The notes under the pieces: model-generated
The model's database searches: none
Told to the model about the DNA's origin: nothing
What the model saw: the letters and a program-made list of their open reading frames with translations, nothing else
IMG/VR virus record: IMGVR_UViG_2698536533_000004
DNA length: 13,399 nt
Reading direction: 5' to 3' (one strand)
Source of the DNA: a virus
Lineage: Duplodnaviria; Heunggongvirae; Uroviricota; Caudoviricetes
Made by a program: the position numbers and the translations under genes
Shown here: positions 3,792 to 12,826 of the stretch, piece after piece
Position numbering within the stretch: position 1 is the first letter of the stretch
Layout: each line of letters opens with the position of its first letter

Positions 3792-5110
3792 ATGGCTGGA
3801 AATACCCTGACCGGGTTGATCCCGACTATTTATACCGCCCTGGATGTTGTATCCCGTGAGCAGGTAGGTTTTATCCCTGCGGTAGCAAAAAACGCAAAAG
3901 CTGACGCCGCAGCAAAAGATCAGACGGTAACCGCGCCAGTTGCGCCTGAGGCGAAAACCGAAGATATCGTACCGGGGCCGTCAGCTCCGAATACCGGTGA
4001 TCAAAATATTGGCACTGTTGATGTAAAAATTACTAAATCCAAAATGGCACCGGTTAAATGGAATGGTGAAGAACAACTGGCTCTTGGCCCTTCAGGGACT
4101 TACAACACCATTCTGGCTGATCAGTTCAAGCAGGCTTTTCGCGCCCTTGCAAACGAGGTTGAGGCTGATCTTGGTGCGTTGTATTTCGGTGCTTCCCGCG
4201 CCGTGGGAACCGCAGGGACAACGCCGTTTGGTGTTAAAGATGATCTTTCTGATGCTGCTCTGGCTCGTCAGGTTCTGGAGGATAACGGCGCACCGACAAC
4301 CGATCTGCAGATGGTGCTTGGCTCCACTGCCATTGCTAATTTGCGCGGAAAACAGTCTGTATTGTTTAAAGTGAATGAATCCGGCACTGAACAGCTACTG
4401 CGTGAGGGCGTGTTGGGGCGTCTGGAGGGATTCAATATTCACAGTTCGGCANNNNNNNNNNNNNNNNNNNNNNNNNNNNNNNNNNNNNNNNNNNNNNNNN
4501 NNNNNNNNNNNNNNNNNNNNNNNNNNNNNNNNNNNNNNNNNNNNNNNNNNNNNNNNNNNNNNNNNNNNNNNNNNNNNNNNNNNNNNNNNNNNNNNNNNNN
4601 NNNNNNNNNNNNNNNNNNNNNNNNNNNNNNGCCTTTACTGCAAATATGGCGTTTGATCGCAACGCGTTTCTGCTGGCATCCCGTACTCCGGCAATGCCGG
4701 AAGGTGGCGATAATGCTGATGATGTAATGAATGTTACGGACCCGATTTCAGGGATTACGTTCCAGATTGCACTGTATCGTCAGTATCGCCAGGTGCGCTA
4801 TGAAGTTGGACTGGCATGGGGTGTTTCATCNNNNNNNNNNNNNNNNNNNNNNNNNNNNNNNNNNNNNNNNNNNNNNNNNNNNNNNNNNNNNNNNNNNNNN
4901 NNNNNNNNNNNNNNNNNNNNNNNNNNNNNNNNNNNNNNNNNNNNNNNNNNNNNNNNNNNNNNNNNNNNNNNNNNNNNNNNNNNNNNNNNNNNNNNNNNNN
5001 NNNNNNNNNNNNNNNNNNNNNNNNNNNNNNNNNNNNNNNNNNNNNNNNNNNNNNNNNNNNNNNNNNNNNNNNNNNNNNNNNNNNNNNNNNNNNNNNNNNN
5101 TCAGGAGTAA
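3792..5110 (+). CDS. Major capsid protein (interrupted by N-runs 4452-4630 and 4832-5100; 3' end uncertain)
   Basis: ATG at 3792 preceded by taaggaat. Protein-like ORF 3792-4451, continuing as protein-like sequence at 4631-4831 (FTANMAFDRNAFLLASRTPAMPEGG...). The next gene has AGGAG plus ATG at 5114, so the stop is in the second N-run or at TAA 5108-5110. Position after the scaffold supports the call. Coding frame changes across the first N-run (0 to 2). Confidence 0.6.
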
Positions 5111-5892: not shown

Positions 5893-6238
5893 ATGGCAAA
5901 GGCATGGGATATAGAACCGTCAATATTTGCCGGGATGATTGAGGAAGATGTAGGGCTGAAGATTCGCTACATCGCTATGCAGATTCTTACTGCTATTGAT
6001 ATTGCTGCTCCGGTTGATACCGGACGTTTCAGAAATAACAACCTGGTGTCGTTACAGCATCCCGATTTTGGTATATCTGATNNNNNNNNNNNNNNNNNNN
6101 NNNNNNNNNNNNNNNNNNNNNNNNNNNNNNNNNNNNNNNNNNNNNNNNNNNNNNNNNNNNNNNNNNNNNNNNNNNNNNNNNNNNNNNNNNNNNNNNNNNN
6201 NNNNNNNNNNNNNNNNNNNNNNNNNNNNNNNNNNNTGA
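5893..6238 (+). CDS. HK97 gp10-like head-tail/neck protein (3' end in or just after N-run 6082-6235)
   Basis: AGGAG 5881-5885 then ATG 5893. N-terminal 63 aa include AAPVDTGRFRNN, resembling the V-D-T-G-x-L-R motif I associate with the HK97 gp10 family. End not determinable because of the N-run. Confidence 0.45.
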
Positions 6239-6595: not shown

Positions 6596-7525
6596 GTGAG
6601 TTCAGGTGCAAAGGTTATCTCGGCATTTATCCGGGAGACGGTTGCAGGCACTACGCCAGCAAGTGGTGACTGGAGTTTATTAAAACGCACAAGCTGGGGA
6701 GTAAAACCCACCCAGAATAAAGGCGAAAATAATGAGATTGGTGGCTCCCGGATGGCTCAGGGGGCGACGCCTGGCACTGTGGATGTCGGCGGTGATGTTG
6801 GTACCAAATTTCGCTGGGGTCAACATGATGATTTTCTTGCATCCTGTTTCGGCGCGGAATGGTCAGGCGATTCTCTGACAATGGGGAATGAGCGAATAAC
6901 ATTTTCTCTGGCGACCTATGCGTCCGATGTCGGAATTGCCTCTGTCGTCAGAGGAGCGCAGGTTGGCTCATGGAAAATGCAGATCCCTAACGACGGCGAT
7001 ATTACAGCGACCGTAACCTTTGCCGGACTGGACTGGGAATCAAAGGCCGATGATACGAATTTTATCAAAGGCGAACCTGTGGATAGTGCAGGAAAGCTAC
7101 GTTATTCGTTTAAGGAGGTTTCAGCAGTAAGCCTGAATGGTGTTGCCGGAGGTAACGGTTTTTGTATCGACAGTTTTGATATTCAGTTCGATAACAAACT
7201 CCAGACACAGCGTTGTATCGGGACTGGCTCGCCTTATGCAGGAGCAAATATTCCGACTACTTTTACACCGTCNNNNNNNNNNNNNNNNNNNNNNNNNNNN
7301 NNNNNNNNNNNNNNNNNNNNNNNNNNNNNNNNNNNNNNNNNNNNNNNNNNNNNNNNNNNNNNNNNNNNNNNNNNNNNNNNNNNNNNNNNNNNNNNNNNNN
7401 NNNNNNNNNNNNNNNNNNNNNNNNNNNNNNNNNNNNNNNNNNNNNNNNNNNNNNNNNNNNNNNNNNNNNNNNNNNNNNNNNNNNNNNNNNNNNNNNNNNN
7501 NNNNNNNNNNNNNNNNNNNNNNNNN
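6596..7525 (+). CDS. Major tail (tube) protein (3' end inside N-run 7273-7525)
   Basis: AGGAGG 6585-6590, 5-nt spacer, GTG 6596. 225 unmasked codons of protein-like sequence. All three frames hit stops within about 15 nt after the N-run, so the gene ends in the gap. Called by position (before the chaperone pair and tape measure) and size; not lambda gpV-like by eye. Confidence 0.55.
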
Positions 7526-7590
7526 CTGAGGCGATTAGTTGATTTTCCGTTATTCCTCCTGTGGTACTGCCCTACAGGGGGACGCATTGA

Positions 7591-8052
7591 ATGAGGTTAT
7601 GGATGTTTATTCTTAATCAGAAAATTATCATTGGTGGAGAACGCTGGTTTACGCCAATGAAGGACTTAAAACCTGTAGACGGGTTAAAACTGTTGGTGGC
7701 AAGCAGCGATAACGATCAGTATCGCTCCCGTAATGCATTAATCCGTCGCCACATTGAGAAAATGGATGCCAGTTTGCACGTCGGAACGAAGGAGTTTGAT
7801 ATTTCAAAGGTTTCCGAGGTGGATTCTGTTGATGATTTACTCATTGATAATGCCGCTCGTTATCTGCTGAAAGACTGGAAAGGGGTTGGTGAACTGGTTA
7901 ATGGTGTTGAGGTTGCACTGGAATATACGGCAGAACGAGGGATCGCGCTGCTTAAGCAGAATCCAGAGTTGTACTGGCAGATCCTTGCAGAAGCAGCCAG
8001 CATCGCCCAGGGTAAAGAGCAGCAGAAGCAGGATACGATAAAAAAGCCATAG
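7591..8052 (+). CDS. Tail assembly chaperone (lambda gpG analogue)
   Basis: GGGGGA 7579-7584 then ATG 7591; 153 aa; acidic protein; stop TAG 8050-8052 lies 4 nt after a slippery heptamer. Canonical position between major tail and tape measure genes. An alternative start at ATG 7657 cannot be excluded. Confidence 0.6.
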   Translation: MRLWMFILNQKIIIGGERWFTPMKDLKPVDGLKLLVASSDNDQYRSRNALIRRHIEKMDASLHVGTKEFDISKVSEVDSVDDLLIDNAARYLLKDWKGVGELVNGVEVALEYTAERGIALLKQNPELYWQILAEAASIAQGKEQQKQDTIKKP

Positions 8053-8582
8053 CTGCCCAGCGGTGGTTATCGGAGTTCGGGGGAGAAAGGGGGGAAAAGG
8101 CAAGATGGAAGCGAGAAAAACTCAGGTTGCCACCGATACCGGAACCAGAAATAGACCCGGTGCTTAAGGAGTTGTTGTACGCCTATTCGGTAATATCCCG
8201 TGCCCGACGTTATGCTGGAATGGCTGGGGTGCCTTTGCCTTTATCTCTGACAGAGATAAATGAATATTTAGCCACTCATCCGGTATTGATTGAGCGCGAT
8301 GAATTTGAAGCAGTGANNNNNNNNNNNNNNNNNNNNNNNNNNNNNNNNNNNNNNNNNNNNNNNNNNNNNNNNNNNNNNNNNNNNNNNNNNNNNNNNNNNN
8401 NNNNNNNNNNNNNNNNNNNNNNNNNNNNNNNNNNNNNNNNNNNNNNNNNNNNNNNNNNNNNNNNNNNNNNNNNNNNNNNNNNNNNNNNNNNNNNNNNNNN
8501 NNNNNNNNNNNNNNNNNNNNNNNNNNNNNNNNNNNNNNNNNNNNNNNNNNNNNNNNNNNNNNNNNNCTGGAGCGAAAAATAA
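7591..8582 (+). CDS. Frameshift-extended tail assembly chaperone (lambda gpGT analogue), via -1 shift at 8040-8046
   Basis: A -1 slip at A_AAA_AAG moves from frame 1 to frame 0. I translated frame 0 by hand from 8046 and it is open with no stop into the ORF annotated at 8127-8582 (…AIAAQRWLSEFGGERGEKARWKREKLRLPPIPEPEIDPV…), ending at TAA 8580-8582. The C-terminal part is largely N-masked (8317-8566). Confidence 0.5.
8040..8046 (+). promoter_or_regulatory. Programmed -1 ribosomal frameshift slippery heptamer A_AAA_AAG
   Basis: Heptamer a(8040) aaa(8041-8043) aag(8044-8046) in the zero frame of the chaperone ORF, two codons before its stop. The -1 frame is open downstream for more than 500 nt. 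Confidence 0.6.
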
Positions 8583-8613
8583 TGCTGACAATCTGACCTC
8601 CTCATTAGTCAAA

Positions 8614-11600
8614 ATGACGCAGGCTGGGGNNNNNNNNNNNNNNNNNNNNNNNNNNNNNNNNNNNNNNNNNNNNNNNNNNNNNNNNNNNNNNNNNNNNNNN
8701 NNNNNNNNNNNNNNNNNNNNNNNNNNNNNNNNNNNNNNNNNNNNNNNNNNNNNNNNNNNNNNNNNNNNNNNNNNNNNNNNNNNNNNNNNNNNNNNNNNNN
8801 NNNNNNNNNNNNNNNNNNNNNNNNNNNNNNNNNNNNNNNNNNNNNNNNNNNNNNNNNNNNNNNNNNNNNNNNNNNNNNNNNNAAGCCGAGAAGGCCGGAA
8901 AACTTGCTGCCGCCCAGCAGGAAGCGCAGGCTCAGGCCTTTCAAAGAATGCTGGACAAGATCGACCCTCTGNNNNNNNNNNNNNNNNNNNNNNNNNNNNN
9001 NNNNNNNNNNNNNNNNNNNNNNNNNNNNNNNNNNNNNNNNNNNNNNNNNNNNNNNNNNNNNNNNNNNNNNNNNNNNNNNNNNNNNNNNNNNNNNNNNNNN
9101 NNNNNNNNNNNNNNNNNNNNNNNNNNNNNNNNNNNNNNNNNNNNNNNNNNNNNNNNNNNNNNNNNNNNNNNNNNNNNNNNNNNNNNNNNNNNNNNNNNNN
9201 NNNNNNNNNNNNNNNNNNNNNNNNNNNNNNNNNNNNNNNNNGTAGAACAACAGAAACAGCTCAATGAAGCAAAAGCTAAGGGGATGCTTTCTCCTGAAAT
9301 GTATGAGGAGCTTTCTGGAAAACTTCGTGCTATGCGGAGTGAGCTTGAGGTTACTCAATCACAATTAAGCAAAACCGGAATGTCGGCAAAACAAACGGCT
9401 TTTGCTATGCGCATGTTGCCTGTACAAATGACGGATATTGTTGTTGGGTTGTCCACTGGTCAGTCGCCATTTATGGTGTTAATGCAGCAGGGCGGCCAGC
9501 TAAAAGATATGTTCGGTGGGATTGGCCCGGCGATCAAAGGTGTAGGTTCTTATGTGCTGGGATTAATTAATCCTTTTACCCTGGCCGCAGCAGCCGTTGG
9601 GGTCTTAGGACTGGCTTACTATAAAGGCTCTCAGGAGCAGGACGAATTTAATAAATCTCTTATTCTTACCGGAAATCAGTTGGGGACAACCAGCGGGCAA
9701 TTGGGCGATATAGCTCAACGTGCCGGGAATGCGGCTGATTCGACAACTGGTGCTGCGGCGGCAGTATTAAATCAGCTTGTGCGTTCGGGAAAGGTAGCGA
9801 GCAGTTCGCTGGAGCAAGTGACGACAGCGATAGTAAAAACGAGCGAAGTAACAGGAATATCAACCGAACAACTGGTTAATGACTTCAATGAAATTGCAAA
9901 GGATCCTGTCAGTGCCATATCAAAACTTAATGATCAGTACCATTTTCTGACACTTGCGACTTATAACCAGATTAAGGCGCTACAGGATGAAGGGAACCAG
10001 CAGGAGGCCGCCCGCATTGCGACAGAAGAATACTCATCCTCAATGATCCAGCGCACCAACCAGATTAAAGAAAATCTTGGTTATCTTGAGACTGCATGGA
10101 AAGCTGTCGCAGACTCCGCAAAATGGGCATGGGATTCCATGCTGGATATTGGCCGTGAGGCCTCCCTTGATCAAAAAATCTCAGATGTTCTCCGTCAAAT
10201 TGATGAAATAGAAAAAAATACCCGACCCGGAGTTTTCGGGTTAGGTGGCATTGGAGATGGCGGAGCTCAAAATAAAAGGCTGGCACGATTAAAGCAGCAA
10301 TTGGGCGTACTTCAAGCAGAAAAAATTGCTCAGGACGTACTAAATTCATCAATAAACGATTACAACAAGCGACAACAGGAAGGAATTGAACTCAGACAGA
10401 GAGCAGATGCCTTTTCAAAACAATATCAGACCCGGGAGCAGCAGAGAGCTAGTGAACTTGCAAAACTGGAAAAGCTAAAGAATCAGTATTCAAAGGAAGA
10501 ATATAATAATCTTATCGCTCAAATAAATGAGCGTTATAAAGATCCAAAGCAACCAAAGGCGAAAGGTTATTCTGATGATGCAGCCCAACGAATGATTGAT
10601 CATCTGAATCAACAGAATGCGTTACTAAGTTCACAAGCTGAGTTGACCGTTAAATTAAGTTCCTCTGAACAGGAACTGGTTAAGTGGCGTCAGCGGATTG
10701 CCGACCTAGAGTCACGACCATCATCGAAATTAACCCAGGATCAGAAATCGCTTCTCTTACACCGGGAAGAAATAACCACGTTGATGGAGAAAAATGTTGC
10801 GATTGAAAAAAATAACAGGCTAATCAAGGAATCCGCCGAAATAACAGCATGGCGTGATTCATTGCAGGCTTCGATTGATAATCGTCAGCAGGGGTATGAT
10901 ATTCAGATTGCTGGTTATGGGGTTGGCGATAAAAATCAGCAACGCCAGCAGGAATTACTGCGGATTGAACATGGATATAACAATCAGCGTCTGCAACTTG
11001 AACGTGACTATGCAGATAAATCCCGTGGAATGTCAGATCATGTTTTTCAAGAGAAAATGCAGGCTCTGAATGATGCTCTGGAACGGGAAAAAGAAATTGT
11101 CAGACAGAAAAACGAGCAGCTCGATATTCAGGCAGGAGACTGGGTTAGTGGTGCCTCCCAGGGATTCAATAACTGGCTGGATGACACTAAGGATATCAGT
11201 GAGCAGATAAAATCAACCACGACTCAGATGTTTGATGGGATGACCGATGCGCTGGGTGATTTTGTCACGACAGGCAAGGCAAATTTTCGTTCTTTCGCTA
11301 CTTCCGTGATTTCGGATCTTAGTCGAATAGCATTAAAGGCTTCAATTACTGGGATTTTCGACAGCATTAGTAACAGTTCTTCTGGGGGGATTTTAGGAAC
11401 TATCGGGAGTGCTATTAGTAAATTTATTCCGAATGCAAAGGGCGGTGTTTATGAGTCTCCGTCATTGAGCACGTATTCGAACGGTATTTATGATTCCCCG
11501 CAATTTTTTGCTTTTGCAAAAGGGGCTGGTGTTTTTGGTGAGGCTGGACCGGAAGCCATTATGCCATTAACACGAACTTCCGATGGTTCTCTTGGTGTCA

Positions 11601-11797
11601 GAGCTATTAATAGTAAAAGTGGTAATGGAGGCGGAGATATTACCTATGCCCCTGTATACCAAATCACTATTCAAAATGACGGCCAGAATGGAGAGATTGG
11701 CCCTCAGGCAATAAAAGCACTTATGGGGATGGTTGATCAGCGGGTGCAGGGCAATCTGTTAAATATGCGACGTGATGGGGGAATGTTAAGTGGCTAA
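8614..11797 (+). CDS. H: Tail tape measure protein, lambda gpH-like (5' region mostly N-masked; true start uncertain)
   Basis: Continuous protein-like ORF from 9242 to TAA 11795-11797. Contains [41 protein letters not shown], matching the lambda gpH segment [38 protein letters not shown] as I recall it, and a C-terminus ([16 protein letters not shown]...RRDGGMLSG) like lambda H. Coiled-coil-rich middle. The ORF track starts at ATG 8948, but the same frame is open and protein-like from the gap edge at 8883, so the start is further upstream; ATG 8614 is the first candidate after the chaperone stop. Confidence 0.85.
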
Positions 11798-12128
11798 TAC
11801 GGAAGAATTTCACTGGTTACCAGAGGATGGAATGAAAACAGAAAATAAACCATCGATAAAAACTGTAAGATTTGGTGATGGTTATGAGCAACGAAGTCCA
11901 AATGGACTTAATCATTCTCTGCGCGTTTTCACCTGTGATTTCAAAGTTGAGGCGAATGAACGTGATTCATTTGAAAAATTTTTAGCCCGGCATGAAGGCT
12001 ATAAATCTTTTTTTTGGCGCCCGCCGGGTATTAACAGAAAAATCAGAGTGGTGTGTCGAACGTGGTCAGCGACAGAACATATCACCTATACCGATTTTTC
12101 GTGTCAGTTTGACGAAGTGGTGATCTGA
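11790..12128 (+). CDS. M: Minor tail protein M (lambda gpM homologue)
   Basis: GTG start at 11790 overlapping the H stop (GTGGCTAA). N-terminus aligns with lambda M as I recall it ([11 protein letters not shown]...KTVRFGDGY against FRWKVKPGMDV...KVRFGDGY), which supports the GTG start over the internal ATG at 11832. Stop TGA 12126-12128 overlaps the L start (TGATG). Confidence 0.85.
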
Positions 12129-12826
12129 TGCAGGACATACAACAGGAAACGCTGAATGAATGCATTCGTGCGGAGCAGTCGGCCAGCGTGGTGCTCTGGG
12201 AAATCGACCTGACCGAGGTAGGCGGGGATCGCTACTTTTTCTGCAATGAGCAGAACGAGAAAGGAGAGTCTGTCACCTGGCAGAGTCGGCAGTATCAGGC
12301 CTATCCCATTCAGGGGAGTGGATTTGAGATGAACGGCAAAGGTGCCAGTGCAAGGCCAACGCTGAAAGTCTCTAATCTGCACGGCATGGTCACCGGGATG
12401 GCGGAAGACCTGCAGAGTCTGGTCGGCGGAACGGTGGTCAGGCGTAAGGTTTACGCCCGTTTTCTGGATGCGGTGAACTTCGTCAACGGAAACAGTGACG
12501 CCGATCCGGAGCAGGAGGTGATCAGCCGCTGGCGTATTGAGCAGTGCAGCGAACTGAGCGCGGTCAGTGCCTCCTTTGTACTGTCCACGCCGACGGAAAC
12601 GGACGGCGCTGTTTTTCCGGGGCGCATCATGCTTGCTAATACCTGCACCTGGACCTATCGCGGTGATGAGTGCGGTTATCACGGTCCGGCTGTCGCGGAT
12701 GAATATGACCAGCCAACGTCCGATATCACGAAGGATAAATGCAGCAAATGCCTGAGCGGTTGTAAGTTCCGCAATAACGTCGGCAACTTTGGCGGCTTCC
12801 TTTCCATTAACAAACTTTCGCAGTAA
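12128..12826 (+). CDS. L: Minor tail protein L (lambda gpL homologue)
   Basis: 232 aa, the same length as lambda gpL. Sequence ([33 protein letters not shown]...CSKCLSGCKFRNNVGNFGGFLSINKLSQ) is nearly identical to lambda L from memory, including the C-terminal Cys cluster. Percent identity was not computed. Confidence 0.95.
   Translation: MQDIQQETLNECIRAEQSASVVLWEIDLTEVGGDRYFFCNEQNEKGESVTWQSRQYQAYPIQGSGFEMNGKGASARPTLKVSNLHGMVTGMAEDLQSLVGGTVVRRKVYARFLDAVNFVNGNSDADPEQEVISRWRIEQCSELSAVSASFVLSTPTETDGAVFPGRIMLANTCTWTYRGDECGYHGPAVADEYDQPTSDITKDKCSKCLSGCKFRNNVGNFGGFLSINKLSQ

Follow-up and report, generated by a model that had tools for sequence, protein, structure and literature searches.

A probable programmed -1 ribosomal frameshift in the ydaY-type tail assembly chaperone gene of Rac-like lambdoid prophages

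In the G/GT class of tail assembly chaperones, a GT fusion protein is produced at a low and fixed ratio to G, both proteins are needed for tail assembly, and neither is found in the virion. The G/GT chaperones of phage lambda are reportedly the subject of the work of Levin, Hendrix and Casjens in 1993 and of Xu, Hendrix and Duda in 2004, 2013 and 2014.

The lambda G/GT tail assembly chaperones have been reviewed, with about one GT being made per 30 G (PMC5009743), and 6–7% frameshifting was measured for two tail-chaperone sites of an HK97-like cluster (PMC3711429). As for the slippery sequences themselves, three heptamers (A_AAA_AAG, G_GGA_AAG and C_CCA_AAG) surpass all others in efficiency in E. 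coli once stimulators are provided (Sharma et al., 2014; PMC4066793). Frameshifting in a reporter was 0.29% for A_AAA_AAG on its own and 4–39% with stimulators (4.3% with those of IS911, 39% with the IS3 pseudoknot), and E. coli genes strongly avoid this heptamer in its slippery phase (z = -10.1; PMC4066793).

We have analysed a 13,399-nucleotide stretch of viral DNA (IMG/VR record IMGVR_UViG_2698536533_000004, hereafter the window), for which an initial annotation, made from the sequence alone, had proposed a G/GT-type arrangement with A_AAA_AAG as the slippery heptamer. It should be noted that G/GT frameshifting as such is textbook knowledge, and that a distant homologue of the genes discussed here, in the Acinetobacter phage vB_AbaS_TRS1, is already annotated as a joined coding sequence; the site in the window is unannotated. 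Unless otherwise indicated, coordinates are those of the window, and all the features described lie on the plus strand.

The tail module and its slippery site

The region is the tail module of a Rac-like lambdoid prophage. Positions 7526–8316 are 100% identical to Salmonella phage SPF_0923 (ON032529; L001 in our comparative set), as are positions 8567–8629, and the former stretch has 98% identity to a group of E. coli vB_EcoS phages. The chaperone pair is flanked on its 5' side by the tail tube (major tail) gene (6596–7542; Pfam Phage_tube_2, E 2.7e-24), which bears the name 'phage tail tube protein' in RefSeq, and on its 3' side by the tape measure gene (8524–11797; Pfam TMP_2, E 3.8e-82, with Tape_meas_lam_C and TMP_4). 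The same gene order is found in SPF_0923 and in E. coli RefSeq. Positions 7273–7525 of the tail tube gene are masked, and its end was set by homology to the SPF_0923 CDS 6990–7952; the start of the tape measure gene falls inside a mask as well, and was set by homology to the SPF_0923 CDS 8936–12169.

The upstream gene of the pair (7603–8052) encodes a predicted G-type tail assembly chaperone of 149 aa (16.9 kDa, pI 5.7), and the ORF is annotated in E. coli as 'ydaY' of Rac-like prophages. Its conserved start is ATG 7603 (MFILNQK...) and not ATG 7591, the 7591-type ATG being followed by an in-frame TAG in four relatives (L067–L070). In E. coli K-12, whose Rac prophage is defective, ydaY lies behind ynaK and has lost its 5' part. 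The orphan gene name ydaY of K-12 is accounted for in this way, as that of a truncated remnant of a tail assembly chaperone gene.

The upstream ORF (codons beginning at positions = 1 mod 3) ends with ...GAT ACG ATA AAA AAG CCA TAG, the TAG being at 8050–8052. The heptamer A_AAA_AAG occupies positions 8040–8046, in X_XXY_YYZ phase with this ORF; its 0-frame codons are AAA 8041–8043 and AAG 8044–8046, and the re-paired codons would be AAA 8040–8042 and AAA 8043–8045. Since the -1 frame is shut by the TAA at 8013–8015 and open from 8016, a ribosome can change frames only within the 37 nt from 8016 to 8052, which is the sole stretch where the 0 and -1 frames are open together, and A_AAA_AAG is the only slippery motif contained in it. 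The first codon after a slip would be GCC 8046, from which the frame (positions = 0 mod 3) reads AIAAQRWLSEFGG... and its product would be AIAAQRWLSEFGGERGEK..., with no stop up to 8316.

The mere presence of AAAAAAG is not significant, because the count of this string in the window (three, one of them on the coding strand) matches the 3.3 expected by chance. In-phase X_XXY_YYZ heptamers number 21 in the 16 genes (4402 codons) of the module, and the one at 8040–8046 is the only heptamer among them that lies within a gene and opens a long -1 ORF (104 codons), the other long -1 case being a gene-to-gene ATGA overlap. The weight of the heptamer observation rests on its phase, its position and its conservation.

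Bases 8317–8566 of the window are N, and this run is not true in length: piecewise BLAST gave an offset to SPF_0923 that changes from 410 to 412 across the mask, and the offset shifts at every other mask of the window too. The -1 frame is therefore not traceable through the mask, and the end of the T ORF was taken from relatives and not from the window, as the N-runs alter length. Unmasking of the window by a constant offset to SPF_0923 was tried and failed outside 7526–8316 for the same reason. Both flanks of the mask are identical in SPF_0923, where a TAG closes the -1 ORF 104 codons past the slip, at the equivalent of positions ~8358–8360; this length of T is common to most close relatives. 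The tape measure ATG lies ~165 nt further on. The predicted T-type extension in the -1 frame thus covers 8046–8360 (104 codons, AIAAQRW...QEQCV), readable to 8316 and with its end taken from SPF_0923.

Our codon reading agrees with the initial annotation in placing an in-phase A_AAA_AAG just before TAG 8050–8052 and in finding the -1 frame free of stops between 8046 and 8127, the frame being open to 8316 in readable sequence. The further statement that this frame continues into an ORF at 8127–8582 has to be abandoned: that ORF is a mechanical artefact, since it crosses an N-run of altered length, its TTG 8127 is merely the first mechanical start codon, and the extension ends at ~8360 instead of 8582.

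At the protein level, G alone matched the PHROG 313 profile ('tail assembly chaperone') with E 4e-46 over profile positions 13–149 of 258, while T alone matched PHROG 1189, which has no assigned function (E 1.4e-36), and gave a weak match to positions 173–246 of PHROG 313. The conceptual G-T fusion matched PHROG 313 with a higher score (E 6e-51), colinearly over positions 13–246 of 258, and the E-value of a second chaperone profile, PHROG 8233, went from 0.008 to 4e-8 upon fusion. Pfam and NCBIfam scans of G and T returned no family above threshold, the only Pfam match of T being the sub-threshold Phage_TAC_18 (E 0.003, 18 bits vs. a cutoff of 27), and a profile search of PDB sequences returned a chance match alone.

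G was modelled with AlphaFold on the basis of 17 homologues, and the model was of moderate quality (pLDDT 70, pTM 0.62). When this model was compared with 48,164 PDB chains, the top chain was the HK97 chaperone 2ob9, with a Z of just 4.9 over 80 residues. The BFVD matches of the model, at TM ~0.5 and with E-values as low as 3e-4, are proteins annotated as tail-assembly or tape-measure chaperones. The tail assembly chaperone fold, as represented by 2ob9, is reportedly treated by Pell and co-workers in their paper of 2013. T is mildly acidic (pI 5.0), as is G. The chaperone family and fold of G are a matter of resemblance, which for the fold is that of a predicted model.

Conservation of the site and of the overlapping frames

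The comparative set consisted of 176 related loci, which come down to 81 when identical G-T regions are counted once, drawn from a phage collection, IMG/VR, GTDB genomes and E. coli RefSeq; the scan of genome contigs provided at least seven confirmed loci. In 174 of the 176 loci, T is read in the -1 frame with respect to G. The two remaining loci, scored as having T 'in frame 0', come down to one IMG/VR contig with two 1-nt homopolymer deletions 3' of the site, which is probably the result of a sequencing error or of decay. In-frame fusions were also suggested by high tblastn scores in L125 and similar loci, and were rejected as a scoring effect, the normal site being kept there. The overlap of the two frames ranges from 34 to ~250 nt among the loci with the site fixed in place, and the 0-frame stop follows the site after 0 to 35 codons, depending on the relative.

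The motif N_NNA_AAG is present at the homologous codon in all 79 unique sequences (79/79), and this codon encodes a lysine that is invariant in the protein alignment (K148). The heptamer is A_AAA_AAG in 68 of 71 enteric-clade sequences, with G identity down to 64%, and is the form found in E. coli, Salmonella, Citrobacter, Klebsiella and related enteric sequences. The lambda heptamer G_GGA_AAG is found in Mixta and in Acinetobacter phages and prophages, and G_GAA_AAG in Pseudomonas phages, while Erwinia phage Gungnir39 has C_GCA_AAG, which is not a canonical heptamer and has a TAA directly after it. The -1 arrangement and the N_NNA_AAG site are conserved from E. coli to Pseudomonas and Acinetobacter phages. 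For Acinetobacter, shift sites at downstream A-runs had been considered and were rejected, as the alignment and the site survey give G_GGA_AAG at the homologous lysine; the fusion sequences of two Acinetobacter rows in alignment A1, built with the downstream A-run join, are consequently slightly off.

Codon usage in G bears on the nature of this conservation. Among the 71 unique enteric-clade G sequences, 40 of the 41 invariant degenerate residues use more than one codon, and the sole single-codon residue is the AAG of the heptamer. Since a single codon is kept there while the other conserved lysines mix AAA and AAG, selection at this position acts on the nucleotides and not on the protein.

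Downstream of the site, the 43 codons up to TTG 8175 (8046–8174) were compared in a codon alignment of 70 enteric-clade sequences, which contained 32 extra nucleotide states at codon position 1, 32 at position 2 and 89 at position 3. Of nine diverged relatives compared over the same stretch, eight had at least as many synonymous as non-synonymous differences, the exception being a Mixta sequence (L091) with 16 synonymous vs. 17 non-synonymous; in the Erwinia phage, where just 6 of the 43 codons are identical, there were 23 synonymous and 14 non-synonymous differences. The stretch also aligns at the protein level with Pseudomonas and Acinetobacter homologues. These patterns of substitution are those of a -1 frame under coding constraint over the 43 codons that follow the site.

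No start codon accompanies this constraint. From the opening of the -1 frame to codon 27 after the site, none of the unique sequences has an ATG, GTG or TTG in that frame, bar one, in which a lone TTG lies 55 codons 5' of the site; in 20 unique sequences, these codons are absent from the first 45 codons after the site. As far as sequence comparison goes, site, frame relation and coding constraint are kept in 79 unique sequences from at least five genera, isolated phages included.

Proposed recoding and alternative explanations

We consider it highly probable (about 0.9) that the comparative sequence data reflect a programmed -1 ribosomal frameshift at A_AAA_AAG, with G as the main product and a GT fusion as a minor one. 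Most ribosomes would stop at TAG 8050 and release the 149-aa G-type chaperone, while a minority would slip back one base on the heptamer at 8040–8046, the two tRNA-Lys shifting together from AAA-AAG to AAA-AAA. Reading would then resume in the -1 frame from GCC 8046 for 104 codons, and would yield a GT fusion of ~252 aa and 28.7 kDa containing the junction ...QDTIKK-AIAAQRW...; the predicted junction-spanning GT peptide after digestion with Glu-C or Asp-N is DTIKKAIAAQRWLSE. By analogy with gpG and gpGT of lambda, binding of the tape measure protein would fall to the G part that both products share, and recruitment of the tail tube protein to the T part, while the frequency of the slip would set the ratio of the two products. 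That the slip occurs, how often it does so, and what the G and T parts do are inferred, the last by transfer from lambda. The G/GT reading of the initial annotation is borne out by the synteny, the PHROG 313 match, the conserved site, the coding constraint in the -1 frame and the lack of a start codon belonging to T.

Among the alternatives, the one that fares best, very improbable as it is, considers T as an ordinary gene in its own right, initiated at TTG 8127, GTG 8160 or TTG 8175, with no fusion being made. Such a gene is indeed present in existing annotations, as SPF_0923 has a CDS equivalent to window positions 8175–8360 and RefSeq a 77-aa 'hypothetical protein' in some genomes, and AAGGAG is found just 5' of TTG 8175. 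However, this AAGGAG is a mere 3 nt from the TTG, and the candidate starts are unconserved, the 20 unique relatives mentioned above lacking any in their first 45 codons. In addition, the 27–43 codons that precede the candidate starts evolve as coding in the -1 frame and align, at the protein level, with the homologues from Pseudomonas and Acinetobacter. A separate T gene would also leave the invariant AAG codon unexplained.

A little less credible again is a slippage of RNA polymerase on the A6 run, adding one A to some transcripts. The site does contain six consecutive A, and bacterial RNA polymerase is known to slip on A runs (PMC5009743, PMC3711429), but the runs described are longer, namely more than 7 A, or 9–10 A in dnaX homologues (PMC3711429). 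The heptamers G_GGA_AAG and G_GAA_AAG of the relatives contain just 3–4 A, which preserves tRNA re-pairing and not a homopolymer, and the invariant last G of A_AAG is a ribosomal feature.

We attach still less credence to termination at TAG 8050 followed by reinitiation nearby in the -1 frame, which would produce a free T without the G part. This would suit the E. coli and Klebsiella types, where the 0-frame stop is one codon past the heptamer; in many relatives, however, the stop is 7–35 codons 3' of the site, and the T-frame homology still begins at the site (e.g. AIEAQKWLSEFGG and AIARFQWESEW). The variable position of the stop, against a T-frame homology that starts at the site, argues against reinitiation. 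The relatives also share no start or near-start codon at the stop. Finally, the idea of a fortuitous heptamer followed by a decaying remnant, with no recoding, would fit the chance-level count of AAAAAAG and the truncated prophage remnant that is the K-12 copy of the locus, but deserves practically no credit, because the conservation of site, frame relation and coding constraint in the 79 unique sequences from at least five genera excludes chance.

If a programmed frameshift takes place at 8040–8046, its yield could be very low, considering that bare A_AAA_AAG gave just 0.29%. Regarding a possible downstream hairpin or pseudoknot, the fold of 8047–8126 was no better than those of shuffled sequences (z 0.91 and -0.17). 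The hairpin predicted at 8047–8073 follows the heptamer with a spacing of 0 nt, has z = -0.17 vs. shuffles and is not conserved, and the consensus fold of 12 relatives reached -3.3 kcal/mol without supporting covariation. A conserved hairpin or pseudoknot spaced by 5–9 nt, of the type that stimulates A_AAA_AAG in dnaX and IS3, was not found at the site, and neither was a conserved SD-like element 5' of it. A weak AGGA is located 6 nt 5' of the heptamer in the enteric sequences and in TRS1, and is absent from the Erwinia, Pseudomonas, Mixta and TCUAN1 sequences. This AGGA is equally explained by the Gln-Asp/Glu codons.

A speculative and rather doubtful extension of the frameshift reading is that what really matters functionally in this chaperone family is slippage in the A site only, on A_AAG, and that the identity of the heptamer tunes the G:GT ratio in a host-specific way, perhaps together with an unrecognised stimulator such as the nascent C-terminus of G or the adjacent stop. 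What suggests this idea is that one lysine codon is held in gamma-proteobacterial phages whose G and T are ~25–40% identical, and that the heptamer turns over among these phages with A_AAG alone invariant and no RNA stimulator detectable.

Annotation status and comparison with known systems

The enteric records examined list 'YdaY', in some cases with a short hypothetical protein beside it, and none of them has a frameshifted chaperone pair; in GenBank and RefSeq, a separate short ORF is called from TTG 8175 or a similar codon. No annotated GT fusion for enteric YdaY-type genes was found in the phage and RefSeq records examined, nor in a 5.8-billion-protein database among the 120 matches listed, of which nine long or atypical ones were inspected. 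The only full-length single-ORF fusion among the matches listed (P0001) was discarded, being a 35-nt deletion mutant. A literature search linking ydaY to frameshifting returned no relevant paper. Because the locus is not annotated as a frameshifted pair in any enteric record examined, the predicted 28.7-kDa GT is missing from proteome databases. The value of the present analysis is mainly one of annotation, as 800 bases of the locus were found in 1073 of 5426 complete E. coli genomes, and the locus is also part of several deposited phage genomes. In addition, it contributes a well-supported case to a well-understood recoding mechanism, and a natural series of heptamer variants at a fixed position.

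The layout is that of lambda in several respects. In both cases, a pair of ORFs occupies the interval between the major tail and the tape measure genes, the downstream ORF of the pair lies in the -1 frame, overlaps its neighbour's 3' end and lacks a start codon, and an X_XXA_AAG heptamer is located a few codons before the stop with no obvious RNA stimulator. In lambda, the sequence is TCT GCG GGA AAG followed by five codons and TGA, T being counted from the G of AAG. The two systems differ in the heptamer (G_GGA_AAG in lambda, A_AAA_AAG here) and in the length of T (144 aa in lambda, 104 aa here). BLASTP gave no alignment to lambda G or T, and the proteins encoded here have no above-threshold match to a Pfam chaperone or T-domain (Phage_tail_T) family.

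The genes TRS1_18/TRS1_19 of Acinetobacter phage vB_AbaS_TRS1 (NC_031098), annotated as a joined chaperone CDS, are true homologues. The identity of their T part is 36–39%, G and GT align over their whole length, and the same -1 arrangement is present, with G_GGA_AAG at the homologous lysine codon. TRS1 differs in this heptamer and in its 0-frame, which stays open for 26 codons beyond the site. The TRS1 record also has an A7 run, lying further 3', that could have been picked as the join point.

The heptamer itself and the tRNA-Lys slippage chemistry are identical to those of E. coli dnaX and of IS911/IS3. There, however, the heptamer depends on an SD-like element 5' of it and on a hairpin or pseudoknot 3' of it, with frameshifting of 4–50% (PMC4066793, PMC3711429), whereas no conserved structure is detectable here.

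The same heptamer in a comparable position is found in ECs1801 of E. coli O157 Sakai prophage Sp9 (cluster A_AAA_AAG_25; Sharma et al., 2014; PMC4066793), a prophage chaperone gene that also lies between the major tail and tape measure genes and in which, as AGA AAA AAG TAG shows, the heptamer comes right before the stop. ECs1801 belongs to an unrelated protein family, with no BLASTP alignment to G (7603–8052), and its frameshift has been termed 'safely inferred' (PMC4066793). A_AAA_AAG is not an unusual choice, being among the top three heptamers when stimulators are present and having already been inferred for ECs1801 (PMC4066793).

Masked stretches and the ydaY gene

The window is interrupted by runs of N, at 767-1037, 1172-1411, 1579-1836, 4452-4630, 4831-5100, 6082-6235, 7273-7525, 8317-8566, 8630-8882 and 8972-9241. 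Comparison with the near-identical Salmonella phage SPF_0923 showed that the original length of the masked DNA is not preserved in these runs: between the two sequences, the offset shifts at each mask (e.g. from 410 to 412 over 8317-8566). Therefore, ORFs or frames traced across masks are unreliable, and this applies to the ORFs at 6596-7594, 8127-8582 and 8614-9267, and to the start of that at 8948-11797.

The upstream chaperone gene (G) lies at window 7603-8052, and the corresponding stretches in the loci L088 and L089 are 2493-2852 and 2603-2962 respectively. The ydaY gene of E. coli K-12 is a 5'-truncated remnant of this gene, located in the defective Rac prophage. RefSeq transfers the short 119-aa 'YdaY' start to intact prophages, where the conserved start gives a protein of 149 aa. 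It should be noted that YdaY-like proteins are apparently already covered by a recent Pfam family, because all the homologues listed in the protein database search (P0001-P0120) carry the precomputed domain PF27119.1, which is absent from the Pfam release used for our domain scan.

Other elements of the tail module

A terminator-like element, consisting of a strong hairpin and a T-run (GAAACCCAC TTCG CGGTGGGTTTT TTGTTG), was observed in SPF_0923 at 8890-8913, in the gap of about 165 nt separating the T stop from the tape measure start codon; this position falls inside the window mask 8317-8566, at roughly 8480-8503. A terminator within a late tail operon is unexpected at this location. In addition, the tape measure gene contains an in-phase G_GGA_AAG heptamer (window 9787-9793), which is probably fortuitous; a -1 slip there would lead to termination 28 codons on.

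Natural variation at the shift site and in the T frame

The homologous shift site is not a canonical heptamer in Erwinia phage Gungnir39 (GTC GCA AAG TAA, L003 1984-1995) and in Pseudomonas phage phiPSA1 (CTG GAA AAG, L004 432-440). Because A_AAG is the sole part retained in these two phages, sequence comparison suggests that A-site slippage alone may suffice there.

The T frame is disrupted in a single IMG/VR contig (2513237361_000013, loci L045/L097) by two single-base homopolymer deletions, G6 to G5 and GAGAAAAA to GGAAAAA, which lie about 40-75 nt beyond the heptamer on its downstream side and reflect either errors in sequencing or decay of the prophage.

A different deletion fuses G and T. 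The 10-nt direct repeat GCAGAAGCAG is present at window 7987-7996 and 8022-8031, and the 35 nt between its copies are missing in one E. coli strain, resulting in the in-frame junction ...QILAEA-GYDKKAIAAQRW... of the 240-aa protein NB16F79_39920 (P0001). This is a natural variant with GT only, without G, and defective tail assembly is to be expected of it if the G:GT ratio is important here, as in lambda.
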